A DNA stretch of 64,000 nucleotides, from the IMG/VR virus record IMGVR_UViG_3300032053_000012; one strand, 5' to 3'. Below the pieces are notes generated by a model that saw only the letters and a list, made by a program, of their open reading frames with translations, had not been told where the DNA came from and did not search any database. The translations under genes and the position numbers were made by a program. Shown one piece after another: positions 1,821-62,049 of the stretch. Source of the stretch: an uncultured virus (IMG/VR IMGVR_UViG_3300032053_000012) (lineage: Duplodnaviria > Heunggongvirae > Uroviricota > Caudoviricetes). Numbering within the stretch: position 1 is the stretch's first letter; every line of letters starts with the position of its first letter.

Positions 1821-2485
1821 GACGCGTCCTCCCTGCCGACGGGTCCGAGCGCACCCTCGCGCTCGGTCCTACCCTCGTTGTCGTCGACCTCCTCGACCTC
1901 CGCGTCTCCTTCCGTGCCTTCCGCGAGCGCGGAGGCCAGCGCCTCCTCCACGTCCCTCGGCAGCCCGAACAGCCCGAGCGCGCCACGGCACGCGACGAAC
2001 GGCACCGCGCGCACGTCGGCGAGCACCAGCGCGAACCCGCCCATGTACCAGGCCGACTGCCCCGGCGTGATCACCCCGTCGCGCACCGCGCGCGCGAGGT
2101 CGATCGGCCCGGACACCACGTCGACCACGCGCGCGCGCCCGACCACGCCGCCCCGGTGCTCGAGGATCAGCCGGTGGTTCGTTGGGTGCGGCAGCGAGTC
2201 GGTCGCCCTGGCCTTCCTCGCCATCCGGATCATCTCGTCGGCCGCGTCGAGGTACTCCGCGACGTCGGCGCGCTGGGGCGGCAGCCGCTCCGCGTCGCCG
2301 CGCGGCCAGTTCGCCGCGTGCAGCCAGATCGGCCCGCGGTACCGGCACGACCGCCACGCGGTGCGGTTCTCGAGCCGCTTGCCCGCGCGCAGGATCGCCC
2401 ACGCCCACGGCTGACGCAAGCTCAGAGTCGGGGTCGCCCCCGGCGTGAGCGCCCACGAGGGAAAACCGCTCGCGCCCGCGCTCAT
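1817..2485 (-). CDS. ASCH-domain protein
   Basis: LSLRQPWAWAILRAGKRLENRTAW..YRGPIWLHA and C-terminal PFVACRGALGLF match the ASCH signature; ATG 2485 overlaps the upstream stop. Confidence 0.85.
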   Translation of the reverse strand: MSAGASGFPSWALTPGATPTLSLRQPWAWAILRAGKRLENRTAWRSCRYRGPIWLHAANWPRGDAERLPPQRADVAEYLDAADEMIRMARKARATDSLPHPTNHRLILEHRGGVVGRARVVDVVSGPIDLARAVRDGVITPGQSAWYMGGFALVLADVRAVPFVACRGALGLFGLPRDVEEALASALAEGTEGDAEVEEVDDNEGRTEREGALGPVGREDAS

Positions 2486-2922
2486 CGCGCGCGACCGTTC
2501 GGCTTCGCGGTGTTCTCGATCCTCTTGCCCGCGTGCAGTCGTCTCTTCGCGTGCGCGTACGCGACCGCGTCGGCCAGCGCGACGGCGCGCCTCGTCCACT
2601 CGAGGCTCGCGTCGATCACCGCCACGGACGTGTGGTGGTGGCCGGACGCCAGGCCGTGAGACTGGCACGCGGCGGCGTCCTCCTCGCGCAGCCGCAGCGC
2701 GAGGTCGCGCGCGGACGCGTAGCGGGCTACCTCGGCCGGGTCGACCGCTGACGCGAGCGCGCGCGACCGCGCGAGCTCGGCGCGCAGGCGCGCGACCTCC
2801 TCGCGCAGGCGGCGGTCCTCGTCCTTCGCGCGCGCGAGGTCGGCCTCGAGCGAGACGTAGTCGCCGACGTCCGCGCTCCGCTTGGTCGGTCCCGAGTAGT
2901 CCCTCTCCCCGCTCGTGCTCAC
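2482..2922 (-). CDS. hypothetical protein (coiled-coil)
   Basis: Coupled ORF; LEADLARAKDEDRRLREEVARLRAEL. Confidence 0.6.
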   Translation of the reverse strand: MSTSGERDYSGPTKRSADVGDYVSLEADLARAKDEDRRLREEVARLRAELARSRALASAVDPAEVARYASARDLALRLREEDAAACQSHGLASGHHHTSVAVIDASLEWTRRAVALADAVAYAHAKRRLHAGKRIENTAKPNGRAR

Positions 2923-3197
2923 GAGAACGCCTCGCCCTCGTTAGATTCGTTGGACTCGTTGAACAGCACGCAGACGCGGATCAGCGCGACGGCGTAGTGC
3001 GCGCGGTGCTCCGCGCAGAGCGCGTTCTTGAAGGAGTCGAGGCCGAGCTGCCAGCCCATGAACGCGCCGCCGATCACCGCCTCGAAGAGCGACAGCCGCA
3101 TGAGGTCACACGCGGGGCACGGCCGCTGCGGCTTGGTCGTCTCCGTCGTCTCCGTCGTTCTCATCCCCAGCGGTCGCGATGGATCTTCGGTTGTCAC
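2919..3197 (-). CDS. hypothetical protein
   Basis: Coupled ORF, CPAC...CAEH; start uncertain. Confidence 0.5.
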   Translation of the reverse strand: MTTEDPSRPLGMRTTETTETTKPQRPCPACDLMRLSLFEAVIGGAFMGWQLGLDSFKNALCAEHRAHYAVALIRVCVLFNESNESNEGEAFS

Positions 3198-3430
3198 GGC
3201 CGCCTCCACGCCTCAAGCGGGATTTCCGCGAGGTCGAGGAGTACGAGTACGGTGTCCACGTCTGGCCTCGTCTCGTTCTTTTGAATCCGATCCGCAGTCT
3301 CCCACGAGCAGTCGAGTCGCCTCGCTATTTTGGCTGTGTCGAGCCCCTCGCGCTTGATCCACTTGTCGAGCATGTCGAGCGCGCGCGGTTTGTCGCTGGC
3401 CTTTGTCTTCGCGGTCGTCGTCGTCGCCAT
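3194..3430 (-). CDS. XRE/Cro-like helix-turn-helix regulator
   Basis: 78 aa; LDKWIKREGLDTAKIARRLDCSWETADRIQKNETRPDVDTVL; first gene of the leftward arm. Confidence 0.8.
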   Translation of the reverse strand: MATTTTAKTKASDKPRALDMLDKWIKREGLDTAKIARRLDCSWETADRIQKNETRPDVDTVLVLLDLAEIPLEAWRRP

Positions 3431-19099: not shown

Positions 19100-19857
19100 A
19101 TCGCGCGAGCCGCGCGGGCCATGCGACTGCTGGTCGACGCCCACCGCTCGTGCTCGAGATGAACGCGTCCTCGCTTGAGGACTGGTACCCGGGCCAGCCG
19201 GCCGAGGCGTGGCGCGAGATCGAGGTGGTCGAGCGCTACTACTTCGACAACGTGCCGCGTCTGAGCGTTCGGATCCTGGAGGGACCGGAGAGGGGCCGCG
19301 TCGTCTCCGGCCTGAGCCCCGGGAACGTGCGGGAGAGAGCGACGAGGACAAGGGGGAGGCGAGCCGCAAACGCCGCCGCCGCGCTCGACTCCGCGGCCCG
19401 CGCGACGCGCGCGCCCGAGCTCGACGCCGCCGAGCTTCGCCGCTGCCTCGCGCGCGACGGGCTGCCGGCCGACGAGACCTTCCACGGTCGCGACCCCTAC
19501 GTGGGTGTGGTCGAGGTCGGCGACAGGAGCGGCAGCGGCGGCGGCGGCAGCGAGGCGGTCGGCGGTCGCTACTTCCCCGCGCGCAACGCCCTGCTCGTCT
19601 ACCGGCACGTCGACCCCGAGGTCACGCGCGCGACGGTCGTCCACGAGCTCGCCCACCACCGCTCCTACCAGGAGGAGTGCGGCGGGACCGAGCGGAGCAA
19701 CCGGACGCGCTGCCGATACCGCGGCGAGCACGACCCCGAGTTCTACGCGCGCCTCGAGCCGATGTACCGGGAGGCGCGCGTGCCCGTCTACGCCGCGCGC
19801 GCGGTGGAGGGGGACTACGACTACCCGGCGAGGTGGCGTAGGATCGAGCGATGGTGA
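19096..19857 (+). CDS. putative zincin metallopeptidase (HExxH)
   Basis: GGRYF...RATVVHELAHH...GEHDPEFY. Confidence 0.65.
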   Translation: MNRASRAGHATAGRRPPLVLEMNASSLEDWYPGQPAEAWREIEVVERYYFDNVPRLSVRILEGPERGRVVSGLSPGNVRERATRTRGRRAANAAAALDSAARATRAPELDAAELRRCLARDGLPADETFHGRDPYVGVVEVGDRSGSGGGGSEAVGGRYFPARNALLVYRHVDPEVTRATVVHELAHHRSYQEECGGTERSNRTRCRYRGEHDPEFYARLEPMYREARVPVYAARAVEGDYDYPARWRRIERW

Positions 19858-20867
19858 CGAGCGCGGCGAACGGGACGCGCGTCCTGCTCCTGCAGGTCGA
19901 CGGGAAGCTGCCGAACGTCGCGCTCATGCGGATCGCCGCGCACCACCGCGCGCTGGACGACTCGGTCGAGCTCAGGCGCACGCCGACCGTCGGATCGATC
20001 CACCGCGACCTCTTCGACCGGCACGACCGCGTCTACGCGTCGGCCATCTTCGAGCGCTCGCGACCCGTCGCGGATCGGATCCGCGAGGTCTACCCGGGCG
20101 CCGTGGTCGGCGGCACCGGCGTCGACCTCGCGACCACGCTCGAGGGGGTCGGGGTCACCACGCTCGACCAGGACTACTCGGTCTACCCTGGCTTCTCCGC
20201 GTCGATCGGCTTCACGCAGCGCGGCTGCCGCCTGCGCTGTCCGTTCTGCGTCGTGCCCGCGAAGGAGGGCGCGGTGCGCGAGGAGCAGACGATCGCGAGC
20301 CTCTGGCGCGGCGACCCGCACCCGCGGCACCTGCACCTGCTCGACAACGACTTCTTCGGCCAGCCGCGCTGGCGGGAGCGCGTCGCGGAGATCCGCGACG
20401 GAGGGTTCCGCGTGTGCTTCTCGCAGGGGATCAACGCGCGCGTGATCGACGAGGAGGTCGCCGCCGCGGTCGCGTCGGTCGACTACCGGGACGACTCCTT
20501 CAAGGTGCGGCGGGTCTACACCGCGTGGGACTCGGCGAGGGACGAGGCGCGGCTGTTCCGCGGCCTCGACCTGCTCGTGGCGGCCGGCGTGAAGCCGGAC
20601 CACGTCATGGTCTACATGCTGGTCGGCTACTGGGCGGGCGAGACCGCGACCGACCGCGAGCACCGGCGCGCGCGGCTGCGCGACTTCGGCGCGCGGCCCT
20701 ACCCGATGCCGTACAAGCGGTCGCCCGAGCTGCTGGCGTTCCAGCGCTGGGTCGTCGGCGCGTACGACAAGACGATCCCGTGGGCGCGGTGGATGAGCGC
20801 GCGGGGCCAGCCGCAGAACCTCACGTCCGCGAGACAGCTACCGCTGCTTCAAGAGGAGGCGTCGTGA
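19851..20867 (+). CDS. radical SAM protein (phage type)
   Basis: LLQVDGKLPNVALM...FTQRGCRLRCPFCVVPAKEG (CxxxCxxC)...LLDNDF...QGINAR...YMLVG..PYPMPY. Confidence 0.9.
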   Translation: MVTSAANGTRVLLLQVDGKLPNVALMRIAAHHRALDDSVELRRTPTVGSIHRDLFDRHDRVYASAIFERSRPVADRIREVYPGAVVGGTGVDLATTLEGVGVTTLDQDYSVYPGFSASIGFTQRGCRLRCPFCVVPAKEGAVREEQTIASLWRGDPHPRHLHLLDNDFFGQPRWRERVAEIRDGGFRVCFSQGINARVIDEEVAAAVASVDYRDDSFKVRRVYTAWDSARDEARLFRGLDLLVAAGVKPDHVMVYMLVGYWAGETATDREHRRARLRDFGARPYPMPYKRSPELLAFQRWVVGAYDKTIPWARWMSARGQPQNLTSARQLPLLQEEAS

Positions 20868-49277: not shown

Positions 49278-49520
49278 ATGAAGCTGAAGAAACCAGTGAA
49301 GTCGAAGCCGACGGAGTCGAAGCGCACGAAGCGCACGAGGCGTGAGCCGGTGATGCTCGTACCCCCGAGGGAGTGGTCGACGAGCGGCACGTCGGTGGAC
49401 GCGCGCGTCTTCCGCGCGTTCGCGGACGTGCTGCGCGCGCTCGCGCCGCTCGACGACGCGGAGAAGACGCGCGTGCTCGCCGCGGCGGCCGCGCTGCTGG
49501 CGGACGAGGACTCGCCGTGA
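49278..49520 (+). CDS. hypothetical protein
   Basis: GAGG RBS; coupled to the MTase. Confidence 0.6.
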   Translation: MKLKKPVKSKPTESKRTKRTRREPVMLVPPREWSTSGTSVDARVFRAFADVLRALAPLDDAEKTRVLAAAAALLADEDSP

Positions 49521-51853
49521 GGATCGGGTCCCTCTTCTCGGGAGTCGGCGGCCTCGACCAGGGCCTCGAGCGCGCGGGCGTCGGGCGGTCCGTGTGGTTC
49601 GTCGAGGCCGACCCGTTCTGCCGCGCGGTGCTCGCCGCGCGCTTCCCGGGCGTGCCCTGCTACGAGGACGTGAGGGCCGTTGACTACTCGCGGGTCGAGC
49701 GGGTCGACGTCCTCTGCGGCGGGCCGCCATGCCAGCCGGCGTCCGTGTCGGGGAAGCGAAGAGGAGGATCCGATGACCGATGGCTCTGGCCCGAGTTCGC
49801 GCGCGCCGTTCGCGCGCTACGACCGCGACTCGTCCTCATGGAAAATGTGTCAGGTCTCTTTTCCGTGGACGACGGAGAGCGACCCCGCGGACCCGACGAG
49901 TTCCCGCGACCCTTCGGCGCCGTCCTCGCCGACGCCGACGGCTCGTCTGCTGCCGAAATGGCCGAAGCAGGGTATCGCGTGCGGTGGGCGTGCGTACGAG
50001 CTTCCGACGCGGGAGCACCCCATCGCAGGGAGCGCGTCTTCCTCGTCGGCGTCCGGGTCGACGACGTCGTCCGCCGAGCCGGTCGCGCAGCGCGGCGGCG
50101 AGGAGCAGACCTGGCCGACGCCGACCTCCTCGATGGACACGATGGGCGACGTGGTGCAGGCGATGTACGCGGGGAGCGACCCGCGGCGACCGGCGTACCA
50201 GGACGCGAACTGGCCGACGCCGACGACGCAGGACTCGGAGAACGACGGGCAGGAGTCGCAGCGGCGGCGGCGCAGCCCGCCGCTGAACGCGAGGGTGGCG
50301 ATGGCGGCCGAGGAGGAGAAGGCGACGGCGCTCTGGCCGACGCCGACGGTCGAGGACGCGGGGAGGTCGGGGAGCCAGGAGATGGCCGACCGGTGGGCGG
50401 CGGGCGAGCGGGTGCCGGACACCCACCAGCGACTCAGGACGGCGGTGCTCGCGCTCTGGCCGACACCGAAGGCGCAGGACGCGGAGAACGCGATGCGCGG
50501 GGCGCGCGCGCAGGGCGGCCCCTCGCTCGGGGAGCAGGTACGGGAGCAGACAGAGCAGGACGCGCTCTGGCCGACGCCGACGGCGAGCGACCAGAACGGC
50601 GCGGGGCACGGCCTGCGCGGCGCGGGGAAGGGACCGGCGCTGACGACGGCGGTGGCGCTCTGGCCGACGCCGGTCGCGAGCGACTGCAAGCGGGGCGAGG
50701 TCGCGACGCCGGAGAAGCCTGGGCAGACGCGGAGCCTGGGCCACGCGGTGGTCGAGGAGCGAGTCGAGGAGCAGCGAGCGCCGACGACCGCGCTCTGGCC
50801 GACGCCGGTGACGACGGACGCGAAGGGGTCGCGCCGGTCGACGGCGCGGACCGACGAGTGGGAGAGCCACGAGGGGACGACGCTGCTCGACGCGGTGCTC
50901 GAGGCCGAGGGGAGGGCCGACGAGCCACGAGATGCGCGACCTGCGGCGCGCCTTCGCCGCGGCACCGCGGCGACTGCCCCTGGGCCGGGCGAGGCGTCGA
51001 GCGCGTCGGCGTCGGAGCCGACGCCTACCTCGCCTGCGGCTGCTGCGGCTTCGCCGACGGCGCCCACGACGCCGGCTGCGGGGCCGGTGGTGCCGACGCA
51101 GACGAGCATGTGGGGAACGACGACGACGGCGCAGCCGAGCACGAGCGAGAGGTGGCCGACGCCGACGGCGGCGACGTACGGTTCTTCGCAGAACGGGATC
51201 AACGGGGTCCACGGGGAGAACCGGCGGCCGAGCGCGGGGACGCCGAGCCTCGAGACGCGCGCGAAGATGGAGGGCGGCGCGCTCAACCCCGACTGGGTCG
51301 AGGCGCTCATGGGGTTTCCGGCGGGGTGGACGGACGTGCCGCTGCCGCACAAGCCGAGGAGGCCGAAGAAGCCGAGGGAGCCGGCCGAGCCCGAGCCGCC
51401 GCGCGGGAAACCGAGGGCGCCGAGGAAGCCGCGCAGGCCGCGGGACCCGACGCAGACCTCGACGACCTCGACCTCGACCTCGACCTCGACGACGAGGTCG
51501 ACGAGGGGGCCGACCTCCACGTGATGGGGAAGGCGGGCGTGGTCTGCGGCGTCGAGCTCGACGAGGAGGACGACCCGGTGGTCCTGACCGTCCCCTTCCT
51601 GGCCGTACCCGACGAGCCGACGCGCGCGCGCGCGATCTCCGCGTGGTGCGGCTGGCCGGCGCCGCCGGGGCAGCCGCAGCGTCCAGGCGAGCCGCCGAGG
51701 ACGACGGCGCGGTTCCCGACGAACGCGCGGCAGCGGAACCGCAGAGAACGACTGCGCGTGCTCGGCAACGCGGTGGTGCCCGCGGTCGGCGAGGTCGTCG
51801 GCCGCTGGGCGATGCGCCTGCTGCGCGAGGATCTGCCGGGAGGCGGCACGTGA
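49517..51853 (+). CDS. dcm: DNA (cytosine-5)-methyltransferase, alpha chain (motifs I-VIII and X)
   Basis: MRIGSLFSGVGG (I), GGPPCQ (IV), MENV (VI), GAPHRRERVF (VIII), RLRVLGNAVVP (X); long low-complexity middle; no motif IX in this frame. Confidence 0.9.
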   Translation: MRIGSLFSGVGGLDQGLERAGVGRSVWFVEADPFCRAVLAARFPGVPCYEDVRAVDYSRVERVDVLCGGPPCQPASVSGKRRGGSDDRWLWPEFARAVRALRPRLVLMENVSGLFSVDDGERPRGPDEFPRPFGAVLADADGSSAAEMAEAGYRVRWACVRASDAGAPHRRERVFLVGVRVDDVVRRAGRAARRRGADLADADLLDGHDGRRGAGDVRGERPAATGVPGRELADADDAGLGERRAGVAAAAAQPAAEREGGDGGRGGEGDGALADADGRGRGEVGEPGDGRPVGGGRAGAGHPPATQDGGARALADTEGAGRGERDARGARAGRPLARGAGTGADRAGRALADADGERPERRGARPARRGEGTGADDGGGALADAGRERLQAGRGRDAGEAWADAEPGPRGGRGASRGAASADDRALADAGDDGREGVAPVDGADRRVGEPRGDDAARRGARGRGEGRRATRCATCGAPSPRHRGDCPWAGRGVERVGVGADAYLACGCCGFADGAHDAGCGAGGADADEHVGNDDDGAAEHEREVADADGGDVRFFAERDQRGPRGEPAAERGDAEPRDAREDGGRRAQPRLGRGAHGVSGGVDGRAAAAQAEEAEEAEGAGRARAAARETEGAEEAAQAAGPDADLDDLDLDLDLDDEVDEGADLHVMGKAGVVCGVELDEEDDPVVLTVPFLAVPDEPTRARAISAWCGWPAPPGQPQRPGEPPRTTARFPTNARQRNRRERLRVLGNAVVPAVGEVVGRWAMRLLREDLPGGGT
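49773..51524 (+). CDS. Overprinted MTase beta chain with 8 WPTP cassettes and a motif IX-like segment
   Basis: GAGGAGG RBS (49761) and ATG 49773 in the +1 frame, entirely inside dcm; LNPDWVEALMGFPAGWTD at ~51282. Confidence 0.8.
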   Translation: MTDGSGPSSRAPFARYDRDSSSWKMCQVSFPWTTESDPADPTSSRDPSAPSSPTPTARLLPKWPKQGIACGGRAYELPTREHPIAGSASSSSASGSTTSSAEPVAQRGGEEQTWPTPTSSMDTMGDVVQAMYAGSDPRRPAYQDANWPTPTTQDSENDGQESQRRRRSPPLNARVAMAAEEEKATALWPTPTVEDAGRSGSQEMADRWAAGERVPDTHQRLRTAVLALWPTPKAQDAENAMRGARAQGGPSLGEQVREQTEQDALWPTPTASDQNGAGHGLRGAGKGPALTTAVALWPTPVASDCKRGEVATPEKPGQTRSLGHAVVEERVEEQRAPTTALWPTPVTTDAKGSRRSTARTDEWESHEGTTLLDAVLEAEGRADEPRDARPAARLRRGTAATAPGPGEASSASASEPTPTSPAAAAASPTAPTTPAAGPVVPTQTSMWGTTTTAQPSTSERWPTPTAATYGSSQNGINGVHGENRRPSAGTPSLETRAKMEGGALNPDWVEALMGFPAGWTDVPLPHKPRRPKKPREPAEPEPPRGKPRAPRKPRRPRDPTQTSTTSTSTSTSTTRSTRGPTST

Positions 51854-52335
51854 GCGCGACGAACGACCGCGACCGAGACGACCGCGACGCTCGCGAGGGC
51901 GGCGGCACGGGGTCCGTCGCGCTCGACCGGCTCCTCGTCGAGGCGACCGACGCGGTGCTGACGGCCGAGCGCGCGGACCGCGCGGCTTCCATCGGTCAGC
52001 CTGTAGTCGTGCTTCTGCTTCGGACCGAGCGCGACGCCGTGGGCGTGCCGGGGATCCGCCACCCGACGCTGCACCGCGGGCGCGCGCTCGCCGGGTGCGT
52101 GGTCGACGCGTGGCTGCGGGTCGCGGCGGCGGAGGCGGCGATCCTCGCGTTCCTCTCGTCGCCGTCGTCAGAGGCGCGCGCGGTGACCGACCCGGCGAAC
52201 CTCGTCGAGGTGCTGCGCCTGGTCTCGTCGCGCGGCGTCGACCACGCGGTTCGCAGGGTCCGGGACGCGGTCGACGCTGAGCGGGCGGCGACCGACGCGG
52301 AGCGGGCGTGGGAGGCGTCGCCCCATGCCTGCTAG
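51850..52335 (+). CDS. hypothetical protein
   Basis: GTGA coupling. Confidence 0.55.
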   Translation: MSATNDRDRDDRDAREGGGTGSVALDRLLVEATDAVLTAERADRAASIGQPVVVLLLRTERDAVGVPGIRHPTLHRGRALAGCVVDAWLRVAAAEAAILAFLSSPSSEARAVTDPANLVEVLRLVSSRGVDHAVRRVRDAVDAERAATDAERAWEASPHAC

Positions 52336-57521: not shown

Positions 57522-57820
57522 GCACTAACAAAGCAGACGACCGAGACGACCCGGCGCGCCACGTCGCGCGCGCGGTCGAGTCGGCGGAGCGGCTGCGCGA
57601 CGCCTGCCAGCAGGCGATCCTCGACCTCGGCGAGGCGATCGTAGCCAGGGACGACAGCGAGGCGCGGCTCGAGGCCGGGAGCGAGAGGGAGCGGGTCGAG
57701 GGGTCGACGCTGCGCAACCTCGCCGCGCTCAACCACACGCGCGTGCGGATCTGCCTCGAGCGGTGCGTCGAGCTCGGGCGTGGCCTCGGGCGGCTCGGGA
57801 TCACGGGGAGGTCGCGGTGA
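57518..57820 (+). CDS. hypothetical protein
   Basis: AGGAGG RBS; coupled. Confidence 0.55.
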   Translation: MSTNKADDRDDPARHVARAVESAERLRDACQQAILDLGEAIVARDDSEARLEAGSERERVEGSTLRNLAALNHTRVRICLERCVELGRGLGRLGITGRSR

Positions 57821-58749
57821 TCCACGACCGCCCCACCTACACCGCCACTGACCGCGTCCCCACCCGCGCGGAGGCCGAGGCTGCGGCGGCCGACGTGCTC
57901 GCCCACGCGACGCGCACCTATGTCGGCGCGGCCGTGGATTTCGCCGTCTTCGTGCGCGCGGAGGCGGCCGAGCGCGCGGACCTGGCCGGGTACGTCCGCA
58001 TGCGGGCCGGGAACTGCCGCAGGACGGAGGCGGCGGCGATCGCGGTCGGCGACGTGCTCGCGGCCGCGACGCCCGAGGTCGCCCTCCTCCCGCCCGAATC
58101 GCGCGCACTGCTCCTTCGTCGCCCACTCGTCCCAGATCGTGCAGCCGTCCGCGCTTGGCGCCACTTCGGCGGCGACTACGGGTTCCTCACGAAGTATCCG
58201 CAGGCGCGATTCGCGGCGTCGATCGAAAACGGCTTCGACCAGATCAAGTGGCTCGTCGCCGAGATCAAGAAGAACCCGAGCAGCCGGCGGCTCGTGGTCT
58301 CGGCGTGGCACCCGGTCGACGCGGGCGTCGTGGCACTGCCGCCGTGTCACACGTTGTTCCAGTGCTGCGTGCAGGGGCCGAGGGACGGCAGCACTGCTAC
58401 CAGGAAGCGCCTGTCGCTCCACCTCTACATGCGCAGCGCCGACTACTTCCTCGGCGTGCCGTTCAACATCGCGAGTTACGCGCTGCTGACGCACCTGCTG
58501 GCGCGCGAGGCGGACCTCGACGCGGGGACGCTCACCGTGTCGTTCGGGGACGTGCACCTCTACCGGAACCACCTCGACCAGGCGCGCGAGCAGCTGTCGC
58601 GCGAGCCGAGGTTGCTCCCTAAGGTCCTGTTCCAGGGAGACCACACGGAGGTCCCGACCTCGATCCTCGACCCCGGGTGGAGAAAGGAGCACGTCTCGAT
58701 CGTCGGCTACGACCCGCACCCCGCGATCAAGGCGGCGGTGTCGGTGTGA
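57817..58749 (+). CDS. thyA: Thymidylate synthase, rearranged: C-terminal two-thirds intact, N-terminus non-homologous
   Basis: From 58156: WRHFG...DQIKW..EIKKNPSSRRLVVSAW..ALPPCHTLFQ...YMRSADYFLGVPFNIASYALLT...GDVHLY.NH...YDPHPAIKA; the IWDEWA segment is on the opposite strand. Confidence 0.85.
   Translation: MIHDRPTYTATDRVPTRAEAEAAAADVLAHATRTYVGAAVDFAVFVRAEAAERADLAGYVRMRAGNCRRTEAAAIAVGDVLAAATPEVALLPPESRALLLRRPLVPDRAAVRAWRHFGGDYGFLTKYPQARFAASIENGFDQIKWLVAEIKKNPSSRRLVVSAWHPVDAGVVALPPCHTLFQCCVQGPRDGSTATRKRLSLHLYMRSADYFLGVPFNIASYALLTHLLAREADLDAGTLTVSFGDVHLYRNHLDQAREQLSREPRLLPKVLFQGDHTEVPTSILDPGWRKEHVSIVGYDPHPAIKAAVSV
58072..58152 (-). pseudogene. thyA: Inverted internal thyA fragment
   Basis: Minus strand reads ADGCTIWDEWATKEQCARFGREEGDLG. 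Confidence 0.85.
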
Positions 58750-61003: not shown

Positions 61004-61195
61004 ATGACCAAAAAGGACCAACTCAAGCGGATCGAAAACGAACGCGACGACGCCTATCTTGCCGGTCGCGCCGGCATGGTCCCCGCTGCGTGGAAGGAGC
61101 TTGCGTTGGCGCTGTGGACTGATCGCAAGCGCAGCCAGGCCCGCGTGGACGCCGCGATCGCGGCGCTCCGACGCTTGGGCGAGGAGCTACCGTGA
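61004..61195 (+). CDS. hypothetical protein
   Basis: GGAGG RBS; 63 aa. Confidence 0.5.
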   Translation: MTKKDQLKRIENERDDAYLAGRAGMVPAAWKELALALWTDRKRSQARVDAAIAALRRLGEELP

Positions 61196-61305
61196 GCAGC
61201 GCCGACGCCGACGCCGACGACGTGATGGTGTGGTGCGCCACGTTCAGCGAGCGCGTGCGGCACGCGCACGAGCCGCCGTCGGCCGTACGACTCCGAGGAG
61301 AAGCC

Positions 61306-62049
61306 ATGACGAGCACGACAATGTTCAAGTACGAGCTACCGAAGACGCTCTCGGACGCCGCGGTGGTCCTGCTCTCGGGCGGGATGGACAGCGCGGCGTG
61401 CCTCGCGCTCGCGCACCGGTGCTACCCGGCGGGGCGGGTGCGCGCGCTCGTGGTCGACTACGGCCAGCCGCACCGCGACCGGGAGACGACGGCCGCGGGG
61501 TTGATCGCCGGGCACGTCGGCGTCCCGAGCGAGCGGATCTGCGTCGCCGACGCGATGGCGGCGATGCGGCCGAGGCGCATGGCGAGGGCGGTGCACGAGC
61601 CGGCAGCGGGCGGCGCGCAGAGGCCGCACCCAGCGGAAGTACCGCAGCGGAACACGGTGCTGCTGTCGCTCGCGGCGGGGCACGGCATGGCGTGGTGGCC
61701 GGACGCGTCGCTCGACCTGTGGATCGGGGCGACCTCGGACGACGCGGCGGGGTTCGCGGACTGCCGGCCCGAGTTCATGGCGGCGGCGTCGCACTGCTTC
61801 TCGACCGCGAGCCCGCGGACCGTGCGCGTGGTTGCGCCGCTGGTCTCGACGAGCAAGCGCGAGCTCGTGGCGAGCGCGAGCCGGGACGTGCTCTGGCTGC
61901 TACGGAGGTCGTGGTCGTGCTACCGGGGCGGGGAGCGACCGTGCGGCGAGTGCACGCCGTGCGTGCTGCGGGCCGACGCGTTCGAGGCGGCCGGGATCCT
62001 CGCGTGCGTCGACCCCGACCCCTCTCCGAGCCAGGGAGACCGGACGTGA
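61306..62049 (+). CDS. queC: 7-cyano-7-deazaguanine synthase QueC-like
   Basis: VVLLSGGMDS (PP-loop), DYGQ.H..E, VPQRN, DCRPEF, APL...K, SWSCY...PCGECTPC..R. Confidence 0.9.
   Translation: MTSTTMFKYELPKTLSDAAVVLLSGGMDSAACLALAHRCYPAGRVRALVVDYGQPHRDRETTAAGLIAGHVGVPSERICVADAMAAMRPRRMARAVHEPAAGGAQRPHPAEVPQRNTVLLSLAAGHGMAWWPDASLDLWIGATSDDAAGFADCRPEFMAAASHCFSTASPRTVRVVAPLVSTSKRELVASASRDVLWLLRRSWSCYRGGERPCGECTPCVLRADAFEAAGILACVDPDPSPSQGDRT

Follow-up and report, generated by a model that had tools for sequence, protein, structure and literature searches.

Within the 64,000 nucleotides (nt) of IMG/VR record IMGVR_UViG_3300032053_000012, an uncultured virus of the Caudoviricetes (this whole stretch is called the window in the following), positions 49517 to 51853 probably encode a two-chain DNA (cytosine-5) methyltransferase of a phage with high guanine plus cytosine (GC) content, written in two overlapping frames of the same strand. 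The first chain, alpha, would supply the large catalytic domain, with motifs I-VIII in its N-terminal and motif X in its C-terminal part, and its linker of about 480 amino acids (aa) would merely be the off-frame reading of the second chain, beta, kept free of stops. Beta would be started from its own Shine-Dalgarno (SD) sequence and ATG, made of alpha codons just past motif IV. It would contribute the small domain, consisting of an N-terminal module (N-module) docking on alpha, eight cassettes anchored by the residues PTP, and motif IX, which would lie against motif X of alpha. By analogy, the two chains would assemble as in the enzyme M.EcoHK31I, to which we return below. The cassettes would be DNA-recognition modules, which makes several target specificities possible, though putative, and from the phage context the enzyme may be thought to protect the phage DNA from host restriction. 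Judged from alignments and composition, our comparison shows that both frames are under selection, that the layout is conserved in a family and that the cassettes are modular. The elements of the locus are the following.

49517..51853, + strand: alpha open reading frame (ORF; frame A), 778 aa from GTG 49517, with motifs I-VIII, a low-complexity linker of about 480 aa and motif X
49517..50065, + strand: N-terminal catalytic part of alpha, with motifs I, IV (PPCQ), VI (ENV) and VIII
49761..49767, + strand: SD sequence GAGGAGG of beta, 5 nt upstream of ATG 49773
49773..51524, + strand: beta ORF (frame B, equal to A+1), 1752 nt, 583 aa, wholly nested in alpha, with TGA at 51522-51524
49773..50065, + strand: doubly constrained overlap, beta N-module (SSSWKM..., WPKQG...ELPTREHP) on alpha motifs VI-VIII
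50112..50210, + strand: cassette 1 (coarse class F)
50211..50333, + strand: cassette 2 (class A), the sole cassette at the predicted interface
50334..50456, + strand: cassette 3
50457..50567, + strand: cassette 4
50568..50660, + strand: cassette 5
50661..50795, + strand: cassette 6 (class E)
50796..50915, + strand: cassette 7 (class D)
50916..51152, + strand: Pro/Ala/Ser/Thr-rich spacer of beta, its coding frame ambiguous by third-position GC
51153..51281, + strand: cassette 8 (class C)
51282..51332, + strand: motif IX-like LNPDWVEALMGFPAGWT in beta (frame B)
51333..51524, + strand: tail of beta, basic and rich in Pro and Thr/Ser, up to the TGA
51653..51853, + strand: C-terminal part of alpha, with a WPAPPG...EPPR element and motif X (LGNAVVP) at 51761-51781

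Two frames with divided motifs

Residues 1-183 of frame A match PF00145 with an expectation value (E) of 1.3e-39 and 137 bits, against a cut-off of 22, and the match covers profile positions 1-165 of 324, that is, motifs I-VIII only. The motifs by which a C5-methyltransferase was recognised, I (FxGxGG), IV (PCQ), VI (ENV) and VIII (xRxR), are all located in the alpha chain. Motifs IX and X are not both joined to them in one chain, X being found in frame A and IX only in frame B. The N-terminal part of alpha also matches phrog_116 and phrog_363 (E 1e-56 to 1e-58), both of which return as weak matches around motif X at its C-terminus, and frame B matches phrog_1008, a 'DNA methyltransferase' (E 9e-28). 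A Pfam search with beta found nothing, and a sequence search of the PDB with the beta profile yielded only the motif IX of plant DRM, as a weak match (4onj, E 0.26). Motif IX in beta is nearly invariant across the aligned relatives.

The SD sequence of beta is built from six consecutive frame A codons ending in A or T (cga aga gga gga tcc gat), in a gene where third-position GC is otherwise about 0.9. It is formed from the alpha codons for AGKRxG, and the ATG from alpha Asp codons (GAT GAx) right after motif IV. An ATG at the homologous place was found in 15 of 36 loci, 12 of these 15 with an SD-like run upstream; the remaining loci have other candidate starts. An earlier note, made from the letters of the window, had described a dcm frame with motifs I-VIII and X, a motif IX-like string in the +1 frame, and an SD sequence and start codon belonging to beta. 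The matches to PF00145 and the PHROG families and the alignments agree with this division of motifs, the coordinates (SD, ATG 49773 and a 1752-nt +1 ORF inside the dcm ORF 49517-51853) are all exact, and the start signals are present at the locus, the ATG recurring in relatives as just described.

By third-position GC, frame A is high at 49500-49770, both frames are intermediate at 49740-50050, frame B has 0.94-1.00 versus 0.56-0.66 in frame A over 50050-51500, and frame A is high again from about 51420. The spacer 50916-51152 leans to frame A (0.92 vs 0.80). Frame A reads there as a Cys-rich string with several CxxC-like pairs, and the spacer varies by indels among close relatives (21 nt in the close relative L012 and in one sediment run).

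On the opposite strand ORFs of 955 and 718 aa are open over the same region; at 75% GC, the openness of a frame alone therefore proves nothing here. Between motifs VIII and IX, we shuffled the codons of frame B synonymously and counted the stops in frame A. In all 26 of the 26 aligned rows in which A runs on, it is free of stops between these motifs; the shuffles gave a mean of up to 6 expected stops, and the probability of having none, P(0), was 0.01 or less in seven loci, three of them related to one another. For the window alone, 2.28 stops were expected and P(0) was 0.076. In two controls, L002 and L009, frame A ends early and contains 13 and 7 stops, as expected without selection (11.2 and 9.4). 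Across motifs IV-VIII, frame B is stop-free in 27 of the 28 rows; stops interrupt the +2 frame in 26 of them.

With a P(0) of only 0.076 for the window, frame A could be open in its middle by GC chance, and the locus would then yield three products: the N-terminal part of alpha, beta, and a separate motif X piece from ATG 51524, which overlaps the TGA of beta (TGATG). However, frame A has no stop, hence the N-terminal part cannot end before 51853, and low-GC relatives keep this frame open by selection. The SD-like GAGGGGG about 17 nt upstream of ATG 51524 is far away. Furthermore, beta stops inside or after motif X of alpha in other loci (e.g. L010, L013, L017, L024, L047, L057 and L060), so that a piece starting at the beta stop could not supply motif X there. 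We consider three products very improbable.

The phase of substitutions was followed in five moderately diverged pairs of loci, counting the codon positions of frame A (A1/A2/A3), of which A1 equals the third position of frame B. In motifs I-IV the counts are 45/32/108, frame A third positions dominating with 108 of 185. Over the overlap they are 30/17/53, with a divergence below that of the A-only part in four of the five pairs. Frame B third positions lead in the middle (56/31/30; 56 of 117) and take 13 of the 15 substitutions in motif IX (13/1/1), and after motif IX the lead is again with frame A third positions (21/9/39; 39 of 69). For the close relatives L011 and L012, the overlap holds 0-1 substitutions and is too similar for an estimate of the ratio of nonsynonymous to synonymous rates. 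Third-position GC, stop shuffles, substitution phase and the family layout given below all speak for selection on both overlapping frames, in line with the two-frame reading of the earlier note.

That note had also suggested a structure prediction of the two chains together. We modelled a complex of the N-terminal (191 aa) and C-terminal (109 aa) parts of alpha with beta (583 aa), each with its own alignment. The complex scored 0.83 in all three runs, compared with 0.13 for the best of three controls; the mark set on this score is reached by 116 of 157 solved complexes and by two of 215 mismatched pairs. Contacts agree by at least 66% across runs, at a predicted local distance difference test (pLDDT) value of about 42 for the partner. 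The confident interface of beta comprises residues 14-28 and 58-77 of the N-module, 143-155 at the start of cassette 2 and 501-525, the motif IX region, which packs on motif X of alpha in the model. This prediction supports, but does not show, that alpha and beta bind. Since solved single-chain C5-methyltransferases show the same packing of motif IX on motif X, the score may reflect likeness to those structures.

The two-frame layout among relatives

The layout was surveyed in 60 loci, taken from viral and metagenome contigs, by tblastn with pieces of both frames. In the recurring arrangement, one frame, f, holds motifs I-VIII, f+1 takes over for the cassettes and motif IX, and motif X is again read in f. 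Among 33 non-redundant loci with dcm motifs IV-VI, the +1 frame is open for at least 178 aa in 31 and carries motif IX, by a strict pattern, in 25. One of the two exceptions, L020, is a true single-frame enzyme. The other, the metagenome contig L048, has a large insertion at about 150-700 of the locus, between alpha motifs VI and VIII; in the +1 frame this insertion is similar to homing endonucleases of the LAGLIDADG type, and frame A is open throughout. In loci of 45-52% GC both frames are open for 187-462 aa, compared with only 2-104 aa for the +2 frame. Both frames are also open in L011 and L012 (98% and 95% identity), where every indel is a multiple of 3.

Three variants can be distinguished. 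In the first, frame A ends after motif VIII, and B has the cassettes, IX and X (L001, L002, L007, L009). In the second, to which the window belongs, frame A reaches motif X and the nested B carries motif IX. The third is that of Rhodococcus phage ReT1v-2 (L061, LC859274), in which A holds motifs IX and X, and B consists only of the N-module and four cassettes. The dcm ORF of 400 aa at 2203-3405 is unannotated in the ReT1v-2 record, which lists only the nested +1 ORF as 'hypothetical protein' and a 51-aa 'DNA methyltransferase' fragment.

The beta-like family comprises 5212 or more cluster representatives (E 1e-3 or better). The window beta matched three phage records, none of a Bacillus phage, and a low-GC beta query found 67, of which 54 are from Paenibacillus phages. 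For one of these, phage Diva, a 350-aa methyltransferase and, in the +1 frame, a nested 234-aa 'g49 internal gene' are annotated; the nested ORF has three cassettes and motif IX. The record of phage HB10c2 annotates alpha only. A scan of genome contigs gave only five distant loci, which are spread over four phyla.

One might suspect a broken single-frame methyltransferase with two compensating indels, or assembly errors, the ORFs being due to the 75% GC; indeed, long chance ORFs are found here on both strands. Against this, the same layout is found in dozens of contigs that are independent of one another, in the genomes of cultured phages and in loci of low GC, and the contigs of four further sediment runs carry the same gene with small in-frame differences only (+3, -3 and the 21-nt insertion seen in L012). 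The chance that the locus is such an artefact appears close to nil.

Besides L020, the relatives P0007 and P0017 are single-frame proteins with the canonical order of motifs, in which the N-module is free-standing after motif VIII. The N-module is thus either overprinted on motifs VI-VIII or free-standing, and judged from these cases the change may have gone in either direction. Five further single chains (P0009, P0011, P0012, P0047 and P0068) are ordered I-VIII, X, N-module, cassettes and motif IX at the C-terminus, as if the small domain had been circularly permuted in nature.

The order I-VIII, target recognition domain (TRD), IX, X of the single-frame P0007, P0017 and L020 would also be rebuilt in one polypeptide if ribosomes shifted frame twice in a programmed way, by +1 past motif VIII and by -1 past motif IX, and where A ends early its stop comes after motif VIII, as such a 0/+1/0 path would have it. 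But frame B is already open 70-90 codons upstream of the shift needed, in 27 of 28 rows; 15 of 36 loci have a conserved ATG for it; and frame A is stop-free through the middle, which a frameshift product does not need. The return to frame A varies, too: it would precede motif IX in ReT1v-2, follow it in the window and be missing altogether in L002 and L009. Finally, M.EcoHK31I makes two polypeptides, according to the accessible parts of the literature on it. We therefore regard a double frameshift as exceedingly improbable.

A modular array of cassettes

In frame B, WPTP is found at 50112, 50211, 50334, 50457, 50568, 50661, 50796 and 51153, with spacings of 99, 123, 123, 111, 93, 135 and 357 nt. 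The DNA core TGGCCGAC(A/G)CCG is present at these eight sites and absent from the rest of the 64 kb; the other five frames of the window together hold a single WPTP, and frame A reads LADAD-like strings at the WPTP sites. The sites, spacings and shared core of the earlier note were thus reproduced exactly, and its statement that most cassettes read WPTPxxxD ... LxxxV is fair, each half of the pattern fitting six of the eight. Beyond the anchor the window cassettes are unlike one another, with local scores of 13-33 compared with self scores of 137-270. Each of them has counterparts in other proteins (scores 52-199), at other ordinal positions.

The homologues carry 1-13 cassettes, and by this count the eight-cassette array is not unique. 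Clustering of 1020 cassettes from 245 proteins gave 160 communities, 19 with at least eight members and 94 singletons. The order of coarse classes in the window is F-A-B-B-B-E-D-C, and many other orders were found in other proteins. Adjacent cassettes belong to the same class in 34 pairs, 27.4 being expected; same-class neighbours are hence not enriched and the arrays not simple repeat expansions. P0002, which is 90% identical, has one extra cassette, inserted at the WPTPT junction before cassette 8 (spacer 50916-51152). Close relatives are mosaics: between L005 and L023 the cassette region is 30% divergent and the remainder 0-10%, and between L005 and L006 the pattern is reversed.

Of the proposal that cassettes are shuffled through the shared DNA core while both frames stay open, the first part holds: comparison of relatives shows, at the level of aligned letters, that cassettes are gained, lost, exchanged and reordered. 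The route did not fare as well. The core measures 12-18 nt and only one indel junction fits it, so that exchange through this short element is only suggested. Among the contigs of the sediment runs there is one of 136 nt in which 239 nt (50317-50557, cassettes 3-4) are replaced by 20 other letters; it is short, has seven mismatches and may derive from another phage. Most other joints in the run contigs, whose sides measure about 21 nt, are probably noise from repeats, and we discounted these contigs as a sign of cassette switching.

What the cassettes do can be seen in two ways. They might not be independent TRDs: the small domain would consist of the N-module, motif IX and one core cassette of class A (cassette 2), with the other seven in accessory roles, for non-specific DNA binding or as tethers or flexible spacers, and the enzyme would have one or a relaxed specificity. 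This alternative concerns the role of the cassettes only. Consistent with it, cassette 2 (beta residues 143-155) is the only one at the predicted interface and the remaining ones were modelled at low confidence; class A is most often the last before motif IX (72 of 129 cases); short relatives exist with 1-2 cassettes; and, as described below, beta has no similarity to the phage phi3T enzyme. Searches of Pfam and PDB gave no match for the cassettes, and in an AlphaFold2 model of the single-chain relative P0017 (19 sequences) they have pLDDT values of 29-43, the catalytic domain being confident and the N-module moderately confident. On the other hand, the classes are kept across very distant proteins (scores of 52-199 versus 13-33 among the window cassettes), which fits specific functions better than spacers, and the lack of enrichment of same-class neighbours does not fit simple expansion of a repeat. 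Accessory cassettes are possible, though on balance we find them somewhat unlikely.

The other way extends the two-chain reading into a single picture. Beta would be a plug-in specificity subunit: each recurrent cassette class, of which there are at least 19, would be a mini recognition domain for one DNA target, so that the enzyme of this phage would methylate up to eight motifs. Cassettes would be exchanged between phages while the alpha linker stays stop-free, and the N-module, common with M.EcoHK31I, would have arisen as an overprint of dcm motif VIII, from which single-frame relatives later released it. In all its parts together, we hold this picture to be doubtful.

Several points weigh against a two-chain, two-frame enzyme with recognition cassettes in beta. 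At 75% GC long ORFs arise by chance, and for the window alone the stop-free frame A is, with P 0.076, only weakly unlikely. The position of the beta ATG is common to only 15 of the 36 loci. Frame A third positions lead in the overlap (53 of 100), which indicates that the beta N-module is less constrained than alpha, and its conservation appears to be partly a by-product of that of alpha. An alpha chain with about 480 aa of junk linker would be costly, and the natural single-frame relatives L020, P0007 and P0017 imply that the two-frame form is not obligatory. The confidence of the models is low for the cassettes (pLDDT 29-43) and for beta overall (42). In M.EcoHK31I, the accessible parts of two papers place the TRD in alpha and not in beta (PMC2836561, PMC3404938).

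Genome context and comparison with known systems

The window is phage-like: it encodes Sak4-like annealing, ParB-like, tail, thymidylate-synthase-like and QueC-like proteins, at a GC content of about 72-76%. Frame A is open from 49373 and terminates with the TGA at 51851-51853. GTG 49517, the likely start of alpha, overlaps the stop of the upstream ORF as GTGA, and the alpha stop overlaps the GTG of the downstream ORF at 51850. Such GTGA overlaps of start and stop join alpha to its neighbours on both sides (49278-49520 and 51850-52335), which suggests that alpha and these small flanking proteins, which are without known families, form one translationally coupled operon. A few kb downstream are a thymidylate-synthase-like ORF (57763-58749; phrog_160, E 5e-59) and a QueC-like ORF (61192-62049; phrog_1550, E 1e-44), and a radical-SAM ORF is located at 19851-20867 of the window. 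With these three the phage may carry DNA-modification pathways beyond 5-methylcytosine (5mC). Near the methyltransferase, no restriction gene was recognised in the phage context.

A same-strand overlap of 1.75 kb selected in both frames would rank among the longest in double-stranded DNA phages. The family is poorly annotated, with alpha only, with beta as 'hypothetical' or with fragments. A literature search, which left out most subscription journals and REBASE, found no account of the cassette family or of a phage-wide family of two-frame methyltransferases. If the cassettes set specificity, their classes would allow 5mC targets to be predicted and perhaps re-programmed, and would explain how phages keep pace with host restriction. 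Split methyltransferases already serve as tools for targeted methylation, according to the accessible part of one paper (PMC2836561).

Multispecific C5-methyltransferases of the Bacillus phages SPR, phi3T, rho11s and H2 were reportedly described by Trautner and co-workers. Enzymes of the SPR/phi3T type are single one-frame polypeptides with tandem short recognition modules between motifs VIII and IX, and their multispecificity has been measured. In the window, eight distinct cassettes lie before motif IX, in two frames instead of one frame and one chain, and their role as TRDs is putative. Compared with the phi3T enzyme (444 aa, from KY030782), beta has no significant similarity (best BLASTP E 2.6, hhalign E 0.87). 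The string S-P-T-L-T-T in the variable region of the phi3T enzyme resembles the anchor W-P-T-P-T-A of the window, a likeness at the level of a motif only.

The enzymes of Paenibacillus larvae phages (for instance Diva DIVA_49 and DIVA_50, KP296791) share with the window the two-frame layout, the cassettes, three in number there, motif IX and a beta start of the type MT(V/D)xSG. They differ in being small (350 and 234 aa) and in coming from low-GC phages. In their accessible parts, the papers on these phages list the genes without discussing the nesting (PMC6070908, PMC5056774).

M.AquI (CYCGRG) is a two-subunit C5-methyltransferase, according to the available part of PMC3404938. Its division of motifs, as far as that description goes, is like that of L001, L002, L007 and L009, in which A ends after VIII and B has the cassettes, IX and X. 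In the window motif X is back in frame A, which makes the split EcoHK31I-like and unlike that of M.AquI.

M.EcoHK31I of E. coli HK31 (YGGCCR) is said to have been reported as an alpha/beta C5-methyltransferase by Lee, Kam and Shaw in 1995. According to the accessible parts of two papers, its beta lies wholly within alpha in another frame, both chains are needed, alpha has motifs I-VIII, X and a predicted TRD, beta has motif IX, and N-terminal deletions of beta weaken the association (PMC2836561, PMC3404938). The nesting on the same strand in another frame and the division into an alpha with I-VIII and X and a beta with IX, as given in these parts, are thus shared with the window. A third likeness comes from the primers for beta deletions in the supplement of PMC2836561 (Tables S1 and S3), which give residues 35-75 of M.EcoHK31I beta. 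Read one base earlier, by our own reading, the same primers give dcm F-G-Y ... P-Q-R-R-R-R-V-Y-I-V, that is, motif VIII, so that the W-S-N-S-G-M part of its beta would overlap alpha motif VIII in the +1 frame, as the beta N-part does here. By eye, and over about 40 primer-derived residues, its W-S-N-S-G-M ... E-H-P resembles W-P-(K/R)-x-G ... E-H-P of the window. As far as these source parts reach, the analogy with M.EcoHK31I drawn in the earlier note is borne out in the nesting, the motif split and the +1 overlap of motif VIII.

The differences lie in size and setting. Residues 55-75 of M.EcoHK31I beta, again taken from the primers, form a different, cassette-free segment after the N-module. 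The window beta, in contrast, has 583 aa, eight PTP-anchored cassettes and a 1752-nt overlap, and the enzyme belongs to a phage, without a recognised restriction gene in its vicinity. The single curiosity of 1995 would be extended to a widespread design, in which catalytic and recognition parts are made as separate chains, and the enzyme of the window is a large, cassette-rich variant of the M.EcoHK31I kind.

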